Source of the DNA: a virus
Taxonomy: Duplodnaviria; Heunggongvirae; Uroviricota; Caudoviricetes
DNA length: 5,554 bases
Reading direction: 5' to 3' (one strand)
Virus record (IMG/VR): IMGVR_UViG_2698536506_000004
The position numbers were made by a program, and so were the translations under genes. Shown here piece after piece: positions 1-5,554 of this stretch; the stretch's first letter is position 1, and each line of letters starts with the position of its first letter. Under the pieces are notes generated by a model. It was not told the origin of the DNA. It saw only the letters and a list, made by a program, of their open reading frames with translations, and made no database searches.

Positions 1-217
1 CTTTTTTTATCGTCGTGGTGAGTCGAGACATAAACCGCTGATGTCGTGGCTGGCCTGGCTGCTGATGCTGCTTTATGCCTTTGCGCCGCTTTGTTATCTG
101 TGTGGTCGCTTTCCACCCGGTAACTGGCTGGTCGTCCTGATTAACCTGGTGTTCTGCGTGCTGGTGATACGAGCACGCGGGAACGTATCAAAAATCCTTG
201 TATTACGAAGGCGCTGA
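1..217 (+). CDS. Putative holin-like small membrane protein (class II-like, two predicted TM helices); 5' end may lie upstream of the window, only in-window start is ATG at 41
   Basis: Frame 2 is open from position 2 to stop TGA 215-217. From ATG 41 the product is MSWLAWLLMLLYAFAPLCYLCGRFPPGNWLVVLINLVFCVLVIRARGNVSKILVLRRR (58 aa): two hydrophobic stretches separated by a short RFPPGN turn, then a basic C-terminal tail, which is typical holin architecture. The stop lies 1 nt before the endolysin start (219), the usual holin-endolysin arrangement. No convincing SD precedes ATG 41, so the true start may be upstream. No homolog recognised from memory. Confidence 0.5.
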   Translation, partial: FFYRRGESRHKPLMSWLAWLLMLLYAFAPLCYLCGRFPPGNWLVVLINLVFCVLVIRARGNVSKILVLRRR

Positions 218-218
218 T

Positions 219-710
219 ATGAAGTCGAAAGATGAAATTTTTGACGAAATTCTGGGAAAAGAGGGCGGTTACGTCAATCACCCGGATGATAAAGGTGGTC
301 CGACTAAATGGGGCATCACTGAAAAAGTTGCCCGTGCACACGGTTATCAGGGCGATATGCGTGACCTGACGCGNNNNNNNNNNNNNNNNNNNNNNNNNNN
401 NNNNNNNNNNNNNNNNNNNNNNNNNNNNNNNNNNNNNNNNNNNNNNNNNNNNNNNNNNNNNNNNNNNNNNNNNNNNNNNNNNNNNNNNNNNNNNNNNNNN
501 NNNNNNNNNNNNNNNNNNNNNNNNNNNNNNNNNNNNNNNNNNNNNNNNNNNNNNNNNNNNNNNNNNNNNNNNNNNNNNNNNNNNNNNNNNNNNNNNNNNN
601 NNNNNNNNNNNNNNNNNNNNNNNNNNNNNNNNNNNNNNNNNNNNNNNNNNNNNNNNNNNNNNNNNNNNNNNNNNNNNNNNGGCTGGATGAAAGAGCGCGT
701 GGCTGTGTGA
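219..710 (+). CDS. Endolysin, glycoside hydrolase family 108-like lysozyme with probable C-terminal peptidoglycan-binding domain; interior hidden by assembly gap
   Basis: ATG 219 preceded by GAAGG (207-211) at 7-nt spacing. N-terminus MKSKDEIFDEILGKEGGYVNHPDDKGGPTKWGITEKVARAHGYQGDMRDLTR carries the EGGY...DxGGxTxxGIT signature I associate with GH108 phage lysozymes (catalytic Glu in EGGY). The frame re-emerges after the N-run as GWMKERVAV then TGA 708-710. No hydrophobic SAR/signal segment at the N-terminus, so it is holin-dependent. Frame continuity across the gap cannot be verified. Confidence 0.78.
   Translation: MKSKDEIFDEILGKEGGYVNHPDDKGGPTKWGITEKVARAHGYQGDMRDLTXXXXXXXXXXXXXXXXXXXXXXXXXXXXXXXXXXXXXXXXXXXXXXXXXXXXXXXXXXXXXXXXXXXXXXXXXXXXXXXXXXXXXXXXXXXXXXXXXXXXXXXGWMKERVAV
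374..680. other. Assembly gap (run of 307 N)
   Basis: Uninterrupted N characters from 374 to 680; true length and content unknown. All ORF-track entries crossing it are partly virtual. Confidence 0.99.
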
Positions 711-799
711 TAGCATTTAAAAATGATCATTATCAATGAGTTAAGTGTATTTTGCGTTTAATTTCTCCTGGGCGTACGCAACCAAAAGGAGAAATACGT

Positions 800-1006
800 A
801 TGAAGTACTATGTTCACACTCTTACAGATAATCAGAACGATCATGAGGTTCATACAGAAACATGTTTTCGACTTCCTGATGCAAACAATCGTAAAGAGCT
901 TGGAGAGTTTAGCTCATGTGAGCCGGCAGTGAAGGCCGCAAAAAATCTGGGTTACACGAGGGTGAATGGATGTTACTGGTGCTGCAGAGATTGCCATACA
1001 TCCTGA
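800..1006 (+). CDS. Hypothetical small cysteine-rich protein (68 aa), moron-like
   Basis: ATG 800 preceded by AAGGAG (786-791) at 8-nt spacing; stop TGA 1004-1006; followed by an intrinsic terminator. Product MKYYVHTLTDNQNDHEVHTETCFRLPDANNRKELGEFSSCEPAVKAAKNLGYTRVNGCYWCCRDCHTS has Cys at 22, 40, 58, 61, 62, 65 and His at 6, 15, 18, 66; no TM segment. The ORF-track entry from 752 uses an upstream TTG lacking an RBS. Family not recognised. Confidence 0.6.
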   Translation: MKYYVHTLTDNQNDHEVHTETCFRLPDANNRKELGEFSSCEPAVKAAKNLGYTRVNGCYWCCRDCHTS

Positions 1007-1032
1007 CATAAGGTGTGAATAATTCTGACAAA

Positions 1033-1057
1033 GGTCGCTTCGGCGGCCTTTTTTATT
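1033..1057 (+). terminator. Rho-independent terminator (UUCG tetraloop hairpin + U-tract)
   Basis: GGTCGC (1033-1038) / TTCG loop (1039-1042) / GCGGCC (1043-1048) gives a 6-bp stem with one G-U pair, immediately followed by TTTTTTATT (1049-1057). It sits 27 nt after the stop of the 800-1006 gene. Confidence 0.72.
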
Positions 1058-1085
1058 ACTCAAAAACGAAAGAACGGAGGTACGT

Positions 1086-1367
1086 ATGTACGCACTCAAG
1101 AAAATCACGGTAACAGAAGACGGTCGTCATGTTGAGGAAGTGCATGTCCTGGGGGATATGTACCGCCTGGAGTTCTATCCGCGTAACACTCATCTTGCAG
1201 CGAAGATTGAGTATTGCCGGGACGGGAATATTCCGTGCATTCCTGTAGAAAAAGAGGATGAAGCCTACATCATCACACTGAACGGTGACACGGCGCGTTG
1301 TATCTGTCGTGGCGACAGTGAAGCCCGGAATGAAATAGCAAGATGTCGCGCCCATACAGATAAATAA
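1086..1367 (+). CDS. Hypothetical small protein (93 aa), moron-like
   Basis: ATG 1086 preceded by GGAGG (1076-1080) at 5-nt spacing; stop TAA 1365-1367; followed by an intrinsic terminator. Product MYALKKITVTEDGRHVEEVHVLGDMYRLEFYPRNTHLAAKIEYCRDGNIPCIPVEKEDEAYIITLNGDTARCICRGDSEARNEIARCRAHTDK; Cys at 44, 51, 72, 74, 87; no TM segment. Family not recognised. Confidence 0.6.
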   Translation: MYALKKITVTEDGRHVEEVHVLGDMYRLEFYPRNTHLAAKIEYCRDGNIPCIPVEKEDEAYIITLNGDTARCICRGDSEARNEIARCRAHTDK

Positions 1368-1377
1368 AAAGCAAAAA

Positions 1378-1409
1378 CCCCGGCTGCGGGAACAGTTCGG
1401 GGTTTTCTG
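1378..1409 (+). terminator. Rho-independent terminator, possibly bidirectional
   Basis: CCCCG (1378-1382) pairs with CGGGG (1398-1402), with an inner CTG/CAG stem (1384-1386 / 1393-1395) around a 6-nt loop, followed by TTTTCTGTTTCTG (1403-1415). An A-rich run (1361-1377) upstream would give a U-tract for the minus strand as well. Confidence 0.65.
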
Positions 1410-1438
1410 TTTCTGACCTTGAGTAAGCAAGGGAGAAC

Positions 1439-1621
1439 ATGGAGAAGTATAAACGAATTCTGTTGAGGTTGACTATGAAAAACGGCCTTGAATTGAAAGC
1501 GCCTGTAACTGATGACATCAGCAGAGCGGTGGCTTTTGCCATTAAGTGGGTGGCGGTCGGCATCGCCGTGTCTCCGATGCTGTATGGGATGGCAAAGTTG
1601 ATTGTTGCTCTGAAATCGTGA
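1439..1621 (+). CDS. Hypothetical small membrane protein (60 aa; C-terminal TM helix); alternative start ATG 1475 (48 aa)
   Basis: ATG 1439 preceded by AAGG/GGGAGA (1429-1436); the internal ATG 1475 also has GAGG (1465-1468) at 6-nt spacing. Stop TGA 1619-1621. Product MEKYKRILLRLTMKNGLELKAPVTDDISRAVAFAIKWVAVGIAVSPMLYGMAKLIVALKS: a basic amphipathic N-terminus and a single hydrophobic segment (about residues 30-57) ending 3 residues before the C-terminus. Confidence 0.5.
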   Translation: MEKYKRILLRLTMKNGLELKAPVTDDISRAVAFAIKWVAVGIAVSPMLYGMAKLIVALKS

Positions 1622-1629
1622 GTGGTGAT

Positions 1630-1812
1630 ATGACGCGAAAACACTGGACACACAGAATGCCGCGAACGGCGGCGAAATGGGCACTGGTAGCGATACTGGT
1701 GCCTTTTTTATTGTCGGGATGCGTCAGCCTGGATAGGGCGCGTCAGCTTTTGGATGCTGCCTCTCAGGTCTGTGAAATTGTCAATGGTGTCCGGCAGTGT
1801 ATGCAGAACTGA
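1630..1812 (+). CDS. Hypothetical small lipoprotein (60 aa precursor; lipobox LSGC); alternative start ATG 1657
   Basis: ATG 1630 lies 8 nt after the stop of the preceding gene, suggesting translational coupling; the SD is weak (GGTGA 1624-1628). Product MTRKHWTHRMPRTAAKWALVAILVPFLLSGCVSLDRARQLLDAASQVCEIVNGVRQCMQN: basic n-region, hydrophobic core WALVAILVPFLL and lipobox L-S-G-C, giving a ~30-aa mature peptide with four Cys including the lipidated one. Stop TGA 1810-1812. Confidence 0.55.
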   Translation: MTRKHWTHRMPRTAAKWALVAILVPFLLSGCVSLDRARQLLDAASQVCEIVNGVRQCMQN

Positions 1813-1936
1813 TCGCCTGTAAGAGCAGAATATTTTGCTGAAAAATGAAGGATGCGCCGGCGTCCGGAAAGCATGAAATTCTGCTGCGTGTACCAATTTT
1901 ATCTTGTTCATTCTAAATCTTGCCGAATCAAGCAAC

Positions 1937-1962
1937 TGCCCGGGCGGCAAGGGGCATTTTTA
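1937..1962 (+). terminator. Weak candidate hairpin + T-tract (possible terminator or translational control element) just upstream of the 1975 gene RBS
   Basis: TGCCC (1937-1941) pairs with GGGCA (1952-1956) around a 10-nt G-rich loop, followed by TTTTTA (1957-1962). The stem is only 5 bp and it ends 4 nt before the GGAGG SD (1966-1970). Low confidence. Confidence 0.2.
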
Positions 1963-1974
1963 TCCGGAGGGGAT

Positions 1975-2196
1975 ATGAAGAGATTACTGGTAACCGTAAA
2001 GCCCTTTAACGGAACGATTCCATTCAGGGTTTTGCAGCGTGGACGTGTTCTGGTTAAGGATATCTTCAGTGGTAAATGCACGGAATGTTATTCCCGGACA
2101 TATGAAGTGGATGCCACGGATGAAGAAATTTCTGTTGAATGTGATCTTAACGCGAATATGGCGGAGATTGTAACAGCCACGTTGTTGCCTGTTTAA
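1975..2196 (+). CDS. Hypothetical small protein (73 aa) immediately upstream of cos, moron-like
   Basis: ATG 1975 preceded by GGAGG (1966-1970) at 4-nt spacing; stop TAA 2194-2196. Product MKRLLVTVKPFNGTIPFRVLQRGRVLVKDIFSGKCTECYSRTYEVDATDEEISVECDLNANMAEIVTATLLPV; CxxC at 35-38 plus Cys 56; no TM segment. The ORF-track entry from 1852 is an N-terminal over-extension. Family not recognised. Confidence 0.55.
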   Translation: MKRLLVTVKPFNGTIPFRVLQRGRVLVKDIFSGKCTECYSRTYEVDATDEEISVECDLNANMAEIVTATLLPV

Positions 2197-2220
2197 TGAA
2201 TGACAGGTGTTCTCATTTGT

Positions 2221-2275
2221 GCGGGTCCTTCCGGTGGGGAGGCCTGCCACGGGGCGGCAGCGGCGCGGATTTTCG
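2221..2275 (+). other. cos: cos site core: cosQ-like conserved block and cosN (predicted terminase nicking site; predicted 12-nt cohesive end GGGCGGCAGCGG at 2252-2263)
   Basis: 2221-2251 GCGGGTCCTTCCGGTGGGGAGGCCTGCCACG resembles the lambda right end (...GCGGGTCCTTTCCGGTGATCCGACAGGTTACG, from memory). 2252-2290 GGGCGGCAGCGGCGCGGATTTTCGCTATTTATGAAAATTTT resembles the lambda left end (GGGCGGCGACCTCGCGGGTTTTCGCTATTTATGAAAATTTT). The distance from the predicted left end (2252) to the Nu1 start (2440) is 188 nt, against 190 in lambda. Nick positions are inferred by alignment, not observed. Confidence 0.75.
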
Positions 2276-2301
2276 CTATTTATGAAAATTTTTCGGGAAA
2301 A

Positions 2302-2317
2302 AGCGTGTCGGTACTTC
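2302..2317 (+). promoter_or_regulatory. cosB R3-like terminase small-subunit binding element
   Basis: AGCGTGTCGGTACTTC aligns with the lambda R3 region (GGCGTTTCCGTTCTTC, from memory). Its core GTGTCGGTAC resembles the R1 arm CATGTCGGACC (8 of 11) in the same orientation. Confidence 0.45.
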
Positions 2318-2321
2318 TCGT

Positions 2322-2353
2322 GTATAACTCATTGTTTTTTCATCAATCACATC
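2322..2353 (+). promoter_or_regulatory. Putative IHF-binding region (I1-like) of cosB
   Basis: The A/T-rich block GTATAACTCATTGTTTTTTCATCAATCACAT is positionally and sequence-wise equivalent to the lambda segment CATAACTTAATGTTTTTATTTAAAATAC that contains the I1 IHF site. No clean WATCAANNNNTTR match was found, so this rests on analogy only. Confidence 0.3.
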
Positions 2354-2360
2354 CGTAAAA

Positions 2361-2415
2361 GGTCCGACATGAAAGTGCCCGAAAAAGACGTTTTTGAGCA
2401 CTTCCATGTCGGACC
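2361..2415 (+). promoter_or_regulatory. cosB R2/R1-like inverted repeats (55-bp near-perfect palindrome)
   Basis: Left arm GGTCCGACATGAAAGTGC (2361-2378) and right arm GCACTTCCATGTCGGACC (2398-2415) are reverse complements at 17 of 18 positions, separated by a 19-nt spacer CCGAAAAAGACGTTTTTGA that is itself partly symmetric. In lambda, inverted Nu1-binding R2 and R1 elements occupy the same position just upstream of Nu1. Confidence 0.6.
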
Positions 2416-2439
2416 CTGCATTTGATATGGAAATGTTTT

Positions 2440-2988
2440 ATGAAGGTTAATAAAAAGAAGCTCGCGGAAATTTTCAACGTGGATCCACGAACGATTGAAC
2501 GCTGGCAGTCTCAGGGGCTCTCTTGTGTCTCTGGTGGTAGTAAGGGGGTTGAATCTGTATTTGATACCGCCATGGCAATTCAGTGGTATGCGCAACGCGA
2601 AGCCGATATTGAAAACGAAAAACTCCGCAAAGAGACCGAGGATTTGCGTGCGGCTGCGGAATCAGATTTACAACCCGGCACCATTGACTATGAACGCTAC
2701 CGACTCACAAAAGCACAGGCTGATGCACAGGAACTGAAAAATGCCCGCGAAGAAGGGCTGGTACTGGAAACGGAATTGTTTACCTTCATTCTGCAACGTG
2801 TGGCACAGGAGATTTCGGGGATACTTGTACGTGTGCCGCTGACATTACAGCGTAAATATCCGGATATTTCACCGTCACACCTTGATGTGGTGAAAACTGA
2901 AATCGCAAAAGCCTCCAACGTTGCAGCTAAAGCTGGTGAGAACGTAGGCGGGTGGATTGATGATTTCAGACGCACAGAAGGCAGCTAA
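2440..2988 (+). CDS. nu1: Terminase small subunit (lambda gpNu1 homolog)
   Basis: Product [41 protein letters not shown]...[28 protein letters not shown]... is closely similar to lambda Nu1 (MEVNKKQLADIFGASIRTIQNWQEQGMPVLRGGGKGNEVLY...[28 protein letters not shown]..., from memory); 182 aa against 181 in lambda. Stop TAA 2986-2988. The ORF-track start at 2422 is an over-extension into cosB. Confidence 0.93.
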
Positions 2989-4876
2989 TGCAGCCGGTGC
3001 GATAGCAACAGGGCTTGTATCTCTCAATATTCCGGTACCACTGACGACAGTTCAGTGGGCTGATCAGCATTATTATCTGCCAAAAGAGTCTTCATATACT
3101 CCCGGGCAATGGGAAACACTGCCGTTTCAGGTTGCCATCATGAACAGCATGGGGAATGACCGGATCCGCACCGTTAATCTGATTAAATCGGCGCGTGTTG
3201 GTTACACCAAAATGCTGTTGGGGGTGGAGGCTTATTTTATTGAACACAAATCCCGTAACAGCCTGCTTTTTCAGCCGACAGATTCTGCGGCAGAAGATTT
3301 TATGAAATCCCATGTCGAACCAACGATAAGAGACGTTCCTGTATTACTGGAGCTGGCTCCGTGGTTTGGCAGAAAACATCGGGACAACACGCTTACCCTG
3401 AAACGTTTCTCCTCCGGTGTGGGATTCTGGTGTCTGGGCGGAGCTGCTGCCAAAAACTACCGTGAAAAATCTGTGGATGTGGTCTGCTATGACGAACTCT
3501 CCTCGTTTGAACCGGATGTGGAAAAAGAAGGTTCACCAACTCTGCTTGGCGATAAGCGTATCGAAGGTTCGGTATGGCCTAAATCCATACGCGGCTCAAC
3601 GCCCAAAATTAAAGGTTTTTGCCAGATTGAAAAAGCCGCGAACGAATCTGCACATTTTATGCGGTTTTATGTGCCATGCCCTCATTGTGGTGAAGCCCAG
3701 TATCTGAAGTTTGGCGATGATGCGACAACCTTTGGCCTGAAATGGGAGAAGGGCAAGCCGGAGACGGTGTATTACCTGTGTGAACATAATGGCTGCGTGA
3801 TCCGTCAGTCGGAACTTGACCAGACCGACGGGCGGTGGATTTGTGACAATACCGGGATGTGGACGCGTGACGGTCTGACATTTTACAGCGCCGGTGATGA
3901 GGAAATCCCGCCACCGCGCTCAATCTCGTACCACATCTGGACGGCATACAGCCCGTTCACCACCTGGGTACAGATTGTTTATGACTGGCTTGATGCACTG
4001 AAGGATCCGAATGGCGTCAAGACGTTCATTAACACCACGCTGGGGGAGCCTTATGAAGAGGCTGTGGCAAAAAAACTGAGCTTTGAGTTGTTGCTGGAAA
4101 AAGTCTGCCACTATGATGCGCAGGTTCCCCTGCGGGTGGTTTACCTGACCGCAGGGATTGACTCTCAGAAAAACCGTTATGAGATTTATGTCTGGGGCTG
4201 GGCTCCTGGCGAAGAAGCTTTTCTGATTGACAAGCAGATCATCATGGGGAGACCGGAAGATGAGGACACCCTTAAACGCGTTGATGCCGTGATCCGGAAA
4301 AAATACCGTCATGCAGATGGCACTGAAATTTCCATTTCCCGCGTCTGCTGGGATACCGGTGGTATTGACCAGGACATTGTGTATCAGCGATCCAGAAAAC
4401 ACGGCACTTTTTTTGTGCTCCCCATCAAAGGGGCGTCGGTGTACGGCAAGCCGGTGATCACCATGCCAAAAAAGCGAAACCAGCGTGGGGTGTTTTTGTG
4501 TGAGGTGGGTTCCGATACCGTCAAGGAAATGCTGTATGCGCGTTTTGCCCTGCCGGTGGTATCTGCCAGTGAAGTCGCACCGTATACCTTCCGTTTTCCG
4601 GATAACCCGGACATTTTTTCTGATGTTGAAGCTAAACAACTCGTGGCAGAAGAGCTGGTTGAAAAAGTTGTGAACGGGCGGGTGAAACTCCAGTGGGATG
4701 CCAGAAAACGGCGTAATGAAGCTCTGGACTGTCTGGTGTATGCCTATGCAGCGCTGCGCATTTCCGTTCAGCGGTGGCAACTGGATCTGGATGCACTGGC
4801 CCGCGCCAGAAGAGATGAACAGGACGACGATGAAATGACTATTGAAGAAATCGCGGCTGCTCTGAGTGGAGGATAA
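2960..4876 (+). CDS. A: Terminase large subunit (lambda gpA homolog; ATPase/endonuclease)
   Basis: ATG 2960 (GGTGG 2951-2955 upstream; the TTG at 2957 is an ORF-caller alternative), overlapping the Nu1 3' end by 29 nt as in lambda. The product is colinear with lambda gpA over its whole length, for example [27 protein letters not shown] against lambda VEWADANYYLPKESAYQEGRWETLPFQ, and the Walker-A-like KSARVGYTK at 3185-3211. Stop TAA 4874-4876; 638 aa against 641 in lambda. Confidence 0.95.
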
Positions 4877-4879
4877 GTG

Positions 4880-5089
4880 ATGATTTATACGCATGAAATG
4901 CTATGCGATGCCCGCCGGGCGTTACATGAACTGATGATCGGACGTGCTGTGGTTTCCGTCAGCAAGGACGGGCGTCAGGTTCAGTATTCGCGGGCGACAA
5001 TTGGTGAACTGCGTCAGTATATTGAAGAGCTGGAAAGTGCGCTGGGTGTATCCGGACGGCGTCGTGGCCCGGCAGGAGTGGGGCTGTGA
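4880..5089 (+). CDS. W: Head completion / head-tail joining protein (lambda gpW homolog)
   Basis: ATG 4880 preceded by GGAGG (4868-4872) at 7-nt spacing; GTG 4877 is an alternative. Product MIYTHEMLCDARRALHELMIGRAVVSVSKDGRQVQYSRATIGELRQYIEELESALGVSGRRRGPAGVGL resembles lambda gpW ([68 protein letters not shown], from memory). Stop TGA 5087-5089. Confidence 0.85.
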   Translation: MIYTHEMLCDARRALHELMIGRAVVSVSKDGRQVQYSRATIGELRQYIEELESALGVSGRRRGPAGVGL

Positions 5090-5554
5090 ACGGGGAACTG
5101 GTGGATATTCATGGGCAGCCTTTACGGCAAAGCATGGGATATTCTGGTGGTGGTTCCGGGTTCGGTGGGCAAATGGCAGAATGGCTGCCTGCACCGGAAA
5201 GTGCCGACGTGGCGCTCTTACCTTCCATTCATCTGGGTAACGCCCGCGCGGATGATCTGGTCCGTAACAACGGTATTGCATCGAATGCAGTGGAAATTCA
5301 TAAGGATCATATTGTCGGGCACATGTTTCGTCTGAGTTACCGTCCCAACTGGCGCTGGCTGGGGATGTCGGAAGCAGATTCACATGCTTTTATTGAAGAT
5401 GTTGAGGCGGCGTGGATGGAATACTGCGATCCGGTGTTTGGTACGATGGATGTGGAAGGGCGTCGTTCGTTTACCGAATTCATTCGTGAAGGGGTGGGGG
5501 TCCATACGTTTAACGGTGAAATTTTTGTCCAGCCCGTATGGGATGCGGAATCCA
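5086..5554 (+). CDS. B: Portal protein (lambda gpB homolog), 5' part; continues beyond window end
   Basis: Frame 1 is open to the window end. Product ...GYSGGGSGFGGQ...LGNARADDLVRNNGIASNAVEIHKDHIVGHMFRLSYRPNWRWLG...GRRSFTEFIREGVGVHTFNGEIFVQPVWD matches the lambda gpB N-terminal region (GYHGGGSGFGGQ...RGNARADDLVRNNGYAANAIQLHQDHIVGSFFRLSHRPSWRYLG...FNGELFVQATWD). Start assigned to GTG 5086, which overlaps the W stop as GTGA and has AGGAG (5074-5078) at 7-nt spacing; GTG 5101 and ATG 5134 are alternatives. Confidence 0.88.
   Translation, partial: MNGELVDIHGQPLRQSMGYSGGGSGFGGQMAEWLPAPESADVALLPSIHLGNARADDLVRNNGIASNAVEIHKDHIVGHMFRLSYRPNWRWLGMSEADSHAFIEDVEAAWMEYCDPVFGTMDVEGRRSFTEFIREGVGVHTFNGEIFVQPVWDAES

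Follow-up and report, generated by a model that had tools for sequence, protein, structure and literature searches.

Small zinc proteins and prophage cargo genes are both kinds of thing that are already known. Among the former, TraR and lambda Orf73 are encoded by mobile elements and reprogram the machinery of the host. Among the latter, the lambdoid morons, such as bor and lom of lambda, gp15 of HK97 and toxin genes, are found in the post-lysis or late region; the slot behind the lysis genes is indeed the classical insertion site for lambdoid cargo genes, and the morons known from it mostly encode envelope proteins or toxins. A further point of reference is provided by E. coli Ada, whose N-terminal zinc domain (N-Ada10; PF02805, Ada_Zn_binding; PDB 1ADN, 1EYF and 1U8B) has the ligands C38-x3-C42 ... 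C69-x2-C72 in the Ada sequence that we confirmed against the PDB. Here we describe a protein of 68 residues from an E. coli prophage, the family of which is itself unstudied, and about which nothing is yet mechanistically surprising.

The DNA analysed, hereafter the window, is a stretch of 5,554 nucleotides (IMG/VR record IMGVR_UViG_2698536506_000004) that corresponds to the late region of a lambdoid prophage of E. coli. Its features are collected in Table 1; the cassette that carries the gene for the 68-residue protein begins directly past the stop codon of the endolysin gene.

Table 1. Features of the window, in window coordinates.
Feature	Position	Strand	Remarks
3TM holin gene	41-217		PF05449
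GH108 endolysin gene	about 225-710		partly N-masked
Optional cassette, relative to sister prophages	711..1027 (right end about 1027)	+	
Cassette leader	711..799	+	AT-rich; GC about 0.37-0.39
Segment matching the 3' end of an Rz1-like gene	724-739		TGATCATTATCAATGA
In-frame TTG, possible earlier start	752		
8-bp palindrome in the leader	772-779		GCGTACGC
Ribosome-binding site	786-791		AAGGAG
Gene for the 68-aa His/Cys protein	800..1006	+	PHROG 4298; UniProt A0A168SMV3_ECOLX
Hairpin (stem and loop)	1030-1051		
Intrinsic-terminator hairpin with T-run	1030..1060	+	
Downstream partner gene, 93 aa, start 'MYALK'	1086..1367	+	PHROG 33497
Five small ORFs			3' of the GH108 endolysin gene
Genes after the five small ORFs			in order: Nu1-type small terminase subunit, large terminase subunit, head-tail joining protein, portal protein

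The open reading frame comprises 68 codons (product MKYYVHTLTDNQNDHEVHTETCFRLPDANNRKELGEFSSCEPAVKAAKNLGYTRVNGCYWCCRDCHTS), and its ribosome-binding site is placed 8 nt upstream of the ATG; translation could also begin at the in-frame TTG, although all homologues start at the ATG of position 800. Cysteines occupy positions 22, 40, 58, 61, 62 and 65 of the product and histidines positions 6, 15, 18 and 66. No hydrophobic segment is apparent in the translation, and neither a signal peptide nor a transmembrane segment was found in the protein. The strong Shine-Dalgarno site, the six cysteines and four histidines and the lack of a hydrophobic stretch had all been noted in a preliminary description of the locus, made from the DNA letters without database searches, and each of these observations is borne out. 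That description also proposed conservation in related phages as a check, and the frame is indeed conserved, with homologues of equal length: dN/dS amounts to 0.083 between the window and prophage L092 and to 0.072 between L093 and L094, the synonymous sites of the remaining, more distant pairs are saturated, and the 68 codons are kept in every copy. The frame is a genuine gene under strong purifying selection, and this selection, together with His and Cys positions that are conserved across 262 diverse homologues, places it beyond chance. A spurious frame within an intergenic spacer would be consistent with the NCBI annotation, as PGAP calls nothing here in NZ_CP010122 and leaves the gene uncalled in the inspected RefSeq E. 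coli records, both in the form seen in the window and as a 71-aa paralogue variant that is more common (244 of 5,426 complete E. coli genomes have it). That explanation is already effectively refuted by the homologues, which run into thousands of proteins of the same length with conserved ligands, by a fold predicted at pLDDT 97 and by the dN/dS values of 0.07-0.08, with the strong Shine-Dalgarno site as a further argument against it.

The protein is a direct member of PHROG 4298, matching the profile over its full length (E 8e-25; its residues 1-67 align with positions 2-69 of a 70-position profile). A word-indexed search returned 16 close relatives, and a profile search of 1.84 billion representative proteins recovered 1,549 clusters, defined at 50% identity, at E <= 1e-3; with the threshold tightened to E <= 1e-10, 486 remained. 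Members are almost always stand-alone proteins of 65-70 residues. In a GTDB scan with one genome per species the family is present in at least 571 species, with representatives in Bacteroidota, Alpha- and Gammaproteobacteria, Acidobacteriota, Planctomycetota, Verrucomicrobiota, Clostridia, Fusobacteria and Patescibacteria; PHROG 4298 takes in only the phage fraction, most of the family being chromosomal and spread across many phyla. All sources name its members merely 'hypothetical' or 'uncharacterised'. Pfam, NCBIfam and PADLOC scans of the 68-aa protein gave noise-level matches only, as did Pfam and NCBIfam scans of 106 family members; sequence searches of the PDB with two profiles retrieved chance matches only (an arenavirus glycoprotein and PsaC), and a literature search for PHROG 4298 or the motif GDHEVH yielded as its sole match an unrelated list of Weissella peptides. 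The family is very large and uncurated: no curated database describes it, and the function of PHROG 4298 is unassigned. Two tandem copies of the gene occur in one viral contig, and about 5% of the top matches carry a signal peptide and end in C-D-T-G instead of C-H-T-S, which suggests that the domain also works outside the cytoplasm. Vitamin-B12 ribonucleotide reductases listed with one member in a cluster table looked like a domain fusion but were an artefact of the table, the sequences sharing nothing with the family.

The conservation is of the type expected for a metal site. Of 274 sequences, 272 have H18 and 272 have C22, while 264 have C58 and 265 have C61; most of the exceptions are gaps. 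Besides these putative ligands, G57, E16, V17, A43, A47 and G35 are near-invariant. C40 and C65 vary together: 246 sequences have the pair, 13 have neither and 5 lack only one of the two, and no other pair of columns scores as high in a mutual-information scan with APC correction. Position 62 is a serine in 51% of the members and a cysteine in about a third, position 6 is an asparagine in 80%, and H15 and H66 are kept in 87% and 92%, respectively. The conserved family pattern is H-x3-C ... C ... C-x2-C-x3-C-H. The six-cysteine signature initially proposed for the protein was consequently wrong in detail, C62 being dispensable and two of the key ligand candidates being histidines.

A structure predicted with AlphaFold2 from an alignment of 111 sequences (pLDDT 97.1, pTM 0.85) places strands at residues 2-6, 15-19, 31-36 and 55-57 and a helix at 40-49, giving the layout beta-beta-[H-x3-C]-beta-alpha-beta-[C-x2-C]. 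On this topology H18-x3-C22, following strand 2, and C58-x2-C61, following strand 4, would form one tetrahedral site, the ligands being brought together as judged from conservation and topology, and the metal would most likely be Zn(II). The C-terminal tail with C65 and H66 would be clamped to the start of the helix at C40, either by way of a second metal site or by direct Cys-Cys contact, perhaps with the participation of H66. The ligand conservation and the predicted fold thus argue strongly for a cytoplasmic metalloprotein with a two-knuckle tetrahedral site. The suggestion that this is a small metal-binding protein is accordingly supported, with H18, C22, C58 and C61 conserved at about 99-100%, and it is the zinc-ribbon fold offered with it that falls. 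A zinc ribbon needs two C-x2-C knuckles on two beta hairpins in a three-stranded arrangement, and here an H-x3-C and a C-x2-C knuckle are split by strand-helix-strand; no zinc-ribbon family or structure was matched in the Pfam, NCBIfam or structure searches.

Foldseek searches of the PDB and BFVD returned nothing below E 0.4, and the only structural neighbour, a weak one, is the N-terminal zinc domain of Ada. The Ada domain runs through a beta-hairpin, a knuckle, a strand, a helix, a strand and a second knuckle, and the order and spacing of its knuckles equal those of the 68-aa protein. The differences are considerable: the first ligand is a histidine where Ada has the methyl-accepting Cys38, the N-terminal helix is missing, a C-terminal C-H tail coupled to C40 is present, no AraC or AGT domain is attached and the charge is neutral. 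At the sequence level, neither the window protein nor any of 106 family members gave a PF02805 match at E <= 1, alignment of the family with the single Ada sequence in hhalign indicated no homology, and alignment of the family profile with 120 Ada domains reached a probability of 0.8%. We therefore regard Ada as the closest analogue, not as the family to which the protein belongs. The identical knuckle spacing in the best structural neighbour could be read as the mark of a true Ada-type sacrificial alkyl acceptor, active in methylphosphotriester repair or alkylation sensing, and a hint of a function on DNA comes from one family member that has a GIY-YIG-like nuclease domain as a fusion (E 6e-4, short of the Pfam cut-off). 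We nonetheless consider such a role highly improbable: the histidine at the position of the nucleophilic Cys38 is invariant, Zn(Cys)3(His) is by established chemistry less nucleophilic than Zn(Cys)4, homology to PF02805 is lacking, and the family is neutral in charge and free of AraC and AGT domains. The histidine, taken together with zinc-thiolate chemistry, makes a structural site likelier than an alkyl-acceptor site.

The metal site would then hold the fold together, and the protein would serve as a small binding module for nucleic acid or protein. The median net charge of the family is 0, with a pI of about 7, which does not favour a classical DNA binder. That the protein is a binding module and not an enzyme is suggested, weakly, by analogy with the topology and knuckle spacing of Ada, and we put this part of the reading forward tentatively, at clearly less than an even chance. 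A role as regulator or inhibitor of a host enzyme, as raised for the protein earlier, is speculation.

The gene is followed by a hairpin with a 9-pair stem, AAAGGTCGC-TTCG-GCGGCCTTT, and then by TTTTTTATT; the structure folds at -14.7 kcal/mol (z = -2.3), and the first 2,500 nucleotides of the window (1-2500) contain 7 terminator-like sites where 2.0 are expected. Across diverged prophages the stem AAGGTCGC...GCGGCCTT is invariant and the loop is TTCG, TGTG, TTC or TTAG. A hairpin with a T-run is situated 3' of the gene in every lineage examined, the 71-aa variant included. A pattern scan, however, turned up at least 120 viral contigs with the same stem, in contexts that were unrelated in 106 of 108 cases, and in a sister prophage without the ORF it lies directly 3' of the endolysin gene. 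A cassette-specific regulatory element is thereby ruled out; the hairpin is a stereotyped phage terminator that is not private to the 68-aa gene. On the + strand, no sigma-70-like promoter was found upstream of the gene in the window, in L094 or in L310, using a scan restricted to consensus sigma-70 sites, weak or activated promoters being outside its reach. An Rfam scan of 681-2500 gave nothing near gathering scores. Thus the self-contained transcription unit with its own UUCG-tetraloop terminator that the preliminary description had envisaged is only half borne out: the terminator hairpin with its TTCG loop is present as claimed, together with a T-run, but a promoter was not found, the loop is not conserved and the hairpin is generic.

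As no promoter was found, the gene is probably read from the Q-antiterminated late transcript in lytic growth. Q-modified polymerase ignores terminators, and would in this case read the gene through them. In the lysogen, some Q-independent transcription may start from a promoter that a consensus scan does not recognise, and the retention of a terminator right after the gene across lineages hints at such transcription without Q; expression in the lysogen is a conjecture on our part. A homologue in Streptococcus phage Javan231 has both a promoter-like site with an extended -10 element and a terminator, and is a textbook autonomous cargo gene.

Within E. coli the exact locus is present in 13 of the 5,426 complete genomes, and 66 other matching records match only at window 1025-1099, a stretch that covers the hairpin and the first part of the following gene. 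Among these 66 hairpin-only records one sister prophage, that of E. coli BCE049, was read in detail: it has the same two holin genes and GH108 gene, the hairpin lies within about 10 nt of the GH108 stop codon with the MYALK gene next, and the cassette is absent. This gene order delimits the optional cassette given in Table 1. Its 5' part is distinguished by a GC content of 0.37-0.40 (windows spanning 681-930), compared to about 0.45 in the rest of the ORF and about 0.50 in the flanks. The leader, which also holds an 8-bp palindrome, is homologous to that of prophage L092 from about position 724 onward, and its first 16 nt of homology match the 3' terminus of a gene for an Rz1-like lipoprotein, which L092 has in intact form. 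The window thus retains the last 16 nt of the Rz1-like gene as a remnant. Close homologues, at 76-90% identity, are all located between lysis and terminase genes; in L092 the gene adjoins those for the LT-II enterotoxin A/B, and this prophage has a pertussis-like toxin gene as well. In 42 non-redundant IMG/VR viral lineages the neighbours are for the most part endolysins, holins, Rz-like spanins and the small terminase subunit. The lysis-terminase slot of gamma-proteobacterial lambdoid prophages thus accommodates the gene as optional cargo, and the absence of the gene from most sister prophages indicates that it is dispensable for the phage.

The position directly 3' of the holin, endolysin and spanin genes in proteobacterial prophages could alternatively reflect an accessory or regulator of lysis, for instance a cytoplasmic antiholin cofactor. 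We consider this very unlikely, as the post-lysis slot is a classical site for lambdoid cargo, a sister prophage with the same lysis genes lacks the gene, and the family, found in at least 571 species, is also present on small plasmids and in chromosomal islands, on the opposite strand within the lysogeny modules of Gram-positive phages and in an inovirus, which does not lyse its host. If our reading is right, the gene, met repeatedly as solitary cargo in a slot known for toxins and conversion genes, is a candidate for a factor of lysogenic conversion or of conflict in E. coli, Klebsiella, Citrobacter, Enterobacter and Providencia.

The gene is not always without company. In 28 of the 42 non-redundant viral lineages the family gene and its hairpin are followed, within about 100 bp, by a partner of one of two types, the MYALK type of PHROG 33497, represented in the window, or the MLTVK type ('MLTVKVMSPGGGEEIH...') of PHROG 3909, and these two PHROGs are the commonest neighbour families. 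The order gene-hairpin-partner is kept between Enterobacteriaceae and Aeromonadaceae, with proteins diverged down to about 50-55% identity. The two partner types occupy the same position in the gene order, and their comparison gives E 0.013 with a probability of 3%. Such an arrangement could represent a two-gene prophage system of the zinc protein and the MYALK/MLTVK protein, with the hairpin setting the expression ratio, for example a defence, anti-defence or toxin-antidote-like pair; this would be compatible with our main reading. The retained order in prophages of the two bacterial families and the frequency of the partner speak for it. On the other hand, the MYALK gene occurs without the zinc gene in BCE049, the 66 E. 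coli records that match the hairpin and the MYALK start suggest the same, and the zinc gene is partnerless in Bacteroidota islands, on plasmids, in Gram-positive phages and in the common 71-aa E. coli variant. Moreover, the two partner types match one another only weakly and PADLOC gave no matches. With the MYALK gene alone in BCE049 and the family gene partnerless elsewhere, the link is suggestive and not obligatory, and we hold a two-gene system to be improbable, although it is the alternative to which we give most weight. A still bolder and somewhat less probable proposal joins this pair to the fold: the family would then be a new, broad class of His/Cys metal mini-proteins, a non-catalytic offshoot of the Ada fold, forming with the MYALK/MLTVK proteins a two-gene accessory system that could act, for example, in phage-host or phage-phage conflict.

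Outside the enterobacterial prophages the family gene mostly travels by itself. Solo homologues on the strand opposite to their neighbours are found in Staphylococcus phage 187, Streptococcus phage Javan231, Erysipelothrix phage SE-1 and a Vibrio inovirus, the copies of the Gram-positive phages and the inovirus lying within the early or lysogeny region, and as plasmid cargo the gene was found on a mobilisable element of 6.6 kb and on members of the IncF group. Other neighbours are heterogeneous accessory genes, including AbiE, subunits of type I restriction-modification systems, DUF2188, an integrase, IS110, RhuM and a holin. The Bacteroidota are a separate case: in 23 of 80 sampled genomes, all of this phylum, the gene is positioned 3' of a TPR-HATPase sensor kinase and a response regulator, and heads an array of small proteins (DUF4236, TerB-like, DUF1508/YegP, HsdR_N-like, Excalibur and DUF4177). 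Apart from this island, no conserved partner was found outside Proteobacteria.

The Bacteroidota arrays also bear on the identity of the metal. Ligand sets of three cysteines and one histidine can also hold Fe or a [2Fe-2S] cluster, and the protein could in principle be an iron or iron-sulfur protein or a thiol redox switch, operating as a small sensor of redox state or stress. The invariant 3 Cys + 1 His, a coupled cysteine pair able to form a reversible disulfide, the secreted family members and the small stress-type proteins (DUF1508/YegP, TerB-like and DUF4236) accompanying the gene behind a two-component system would all fit. We still judge this unlikely, since X-x3-C and C-x2-C on this topology represent a mononuclear tetrahedral geometry, as in N-Ada, and no known Fe-S motif matches, Pfam Fer4 remaining at noise level.

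We return, then, to zinc as the probable metal and to the question of what the protein acts upon. With no universal partner, the protein would act alone on something widely conserved, and its solitary travel in prophages, plasmids, an inovirus and islands of many phyla likewise suggests a widely conserved cellular target. Aggregated, a zinc-stabilised binding module carried as accessory cargo is the reading that we consider moderately probable as a whole; that there is a real gene, a metal site and a cargo location is far more secure than that. If the inference is right, the family constitutes a sizeable piece of protein 'dark matter', with hundreds of species harbouring a compact, confidently predicted and apparently metal-needing domain on phages, plasmids and genomic islands, and would exemplify a second, non-repair use of the Ada-type zinc-knuckle architecture. 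It would moreover be a cheap target for structure determination, metal analysis and a new family definition.

Set against the described systems, the locus resembles the lambdoid morons in that the cassette is present or absent between the same flanking late genes, is AT-richer and is followed by a terminator, and in that the L092 copy occupies the same slot beside LT-II enterotoxin genes. It differs from them in three respects: a search of the E. coli copies did not reveal the promoter that defines a moron, the terminator is equally present where the cassette is missing, and the product is a predicted cytoplasmic metal protein, not an envelope protein or a toxin. TraR and lambda Orf73, with their DksA-like C4 fingers, are likewise proteins of about 70 residues with a cysteine-based metal site in the cytoplasm, and are likewise solo accessory genes on phages and plasmids. 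No TraR-type sequence or structural match emerged from the PDB profile searches or Foldseek, and TraR is a coiled coil with a C4 finger, whereas the predicted fold of the 68-aa protein is unrelated; the likeness is one of lifestyle only.

The stem of the intrinsic terminator directly 3' of the His/Cys gene, AAGGTCGC-N4-GCGGCCTTTTTTATT, was found again in at least 120 IMG/VR contigs (L100-L219), carrying at least 26 distinct loops and placed in gene contexts that are nearly all unrelated. This exact 23-base stem with its tail is widespread in phages; it could mark the edge of a mobile element, serve as a linker for recombination or be a terminator that phages favour. Beyond the gene and its hairpin, 28 of 42 viral lineages carry the gene for either of two small proteins, named here MYALK and MLTVKVMSPGGGEEIH, as seen in the window, in the prophages with diverged copies (L092-L096), in L012 and L035 and at many IMG/VR loci. 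In strain C5, RefSeq annotates the gene for MYALK as a pseudogene with a frameshift. Upstream, a perfect 8-bp palindrome, GCGTACGC, is positioned about 20 nt 5' of the His/Cys start codon, being kept in L093-L096 but not in L092. A second palindrome, ATACGTAT, overlaps the ATG itself, and ACGTATG is seen again where the next gene begins.

Features of the window surrounding the His/Cys gene
Feature	Window position	Remarks
GH108 endolysin gene	about 225-710	mostly masked by N run at 374-680
Lipoprotein gene remnant	724-739	16 nt
Palindrome GCGTACGC	772-779	
Palindrome ATACGTAT	794-801	
Terminator stem-loop	1030-1060	
ACGTATG	1080-1088	
MYALK protein gene, 93 aa	1086-1367	PHROG 33497, uncharacterised
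MLTVKVMSPGGGEEIH protein, 66 aa (other lineages, in place of MYALK)		PHROG 3909, uncharacterised
60-aa ORF, C-terminal transmembrane segment	1439-1621	PHROG 1115
60-aa ORF, lipoprotein, lipobox LLSGC	1630-1812	PHROG 7528

The run of N leaves the GH108 endolysin unreadable in the window; at the identical locus of NZ_CP010122 the protein is intact. Further downstream, two 60-aa ORFs are neighbours, one with a transmembrane segment and the other a lipoprotein that gives a faint Rz-like spanin match only (E 0.04). In L092, a homologue of this lipoprotein is located immediately 3' of the endolysin, and the window retains, between endolysin and His/Cys genes, a remnant corresponding to the last 16 nt of the lipoprotein gene standing there in L092. 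The two ORFs may form an unusual spanin-like pair, pushed out of the lysis cassette by cargo genes.

The family ORF lacks a PGAP gene call in the RefSeq records NZ_CP047277 (L310) and NZ_CP010122. In the former, a 1-kb stretch without annotated gene, reaching from the lysis genes to the terminase genes, holds the 71-aa variant, the commoner E. coli paralogue. This variant has matches in 244 of 5,426 complete E. coli genomes, and among the six matches listed none has an annotated feature beneath it.

Several architectures were observed within the family. Two proteins, P0089 and P0145, contain two tandem family domains, and one prophage (L307) has two tandem paralogous genes (4468-4710 and 5001-5207). 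A single fusion, to a GIY-YIG-like domain, was detected (P0112), and signal peptides and a C-D-T-G C-terminus mark a subgroup (P0038, P0044, P0066, P0092, P0093 and P0110). The 90%-identity cluster table also grouped Oricola vitamin-B12 ribonucleotide reductases (1,000-1,364 aa) with a 69-aa Enterobacter family member. We rejected a reductase domain fusion; because the reductase sequences and the family have nothing in common, the cluster looks like a table artefact.

In Bacteroidota, the gene is part of a conserved island, in which genes for a sensor kinase of TPR-HATPase type and for a response regulator precede the His/Cys gene, with a variable small-protein array after it (L018, L022, L023, L039, L040 and 18 other loci). 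Array members include DUF4236, TerB-like, DUF1508/YegP, HsdR_N-like, Excalibur and DUF4177 proteins, and additionally an 80-aa lipoprotein with its own motif, Y-H-x4-C ... C-x-H ... C. In L092, a lambdoid prophage fragment (Logan contig ERR3499260), the cassette adjoins the genes for LT-II enterotoxin A and B; 5' of the holins lies a gene resembling that for pertussis toxin S1. Toxins here occupy the same post-lysis cargo slot as the His/Cys cassette.
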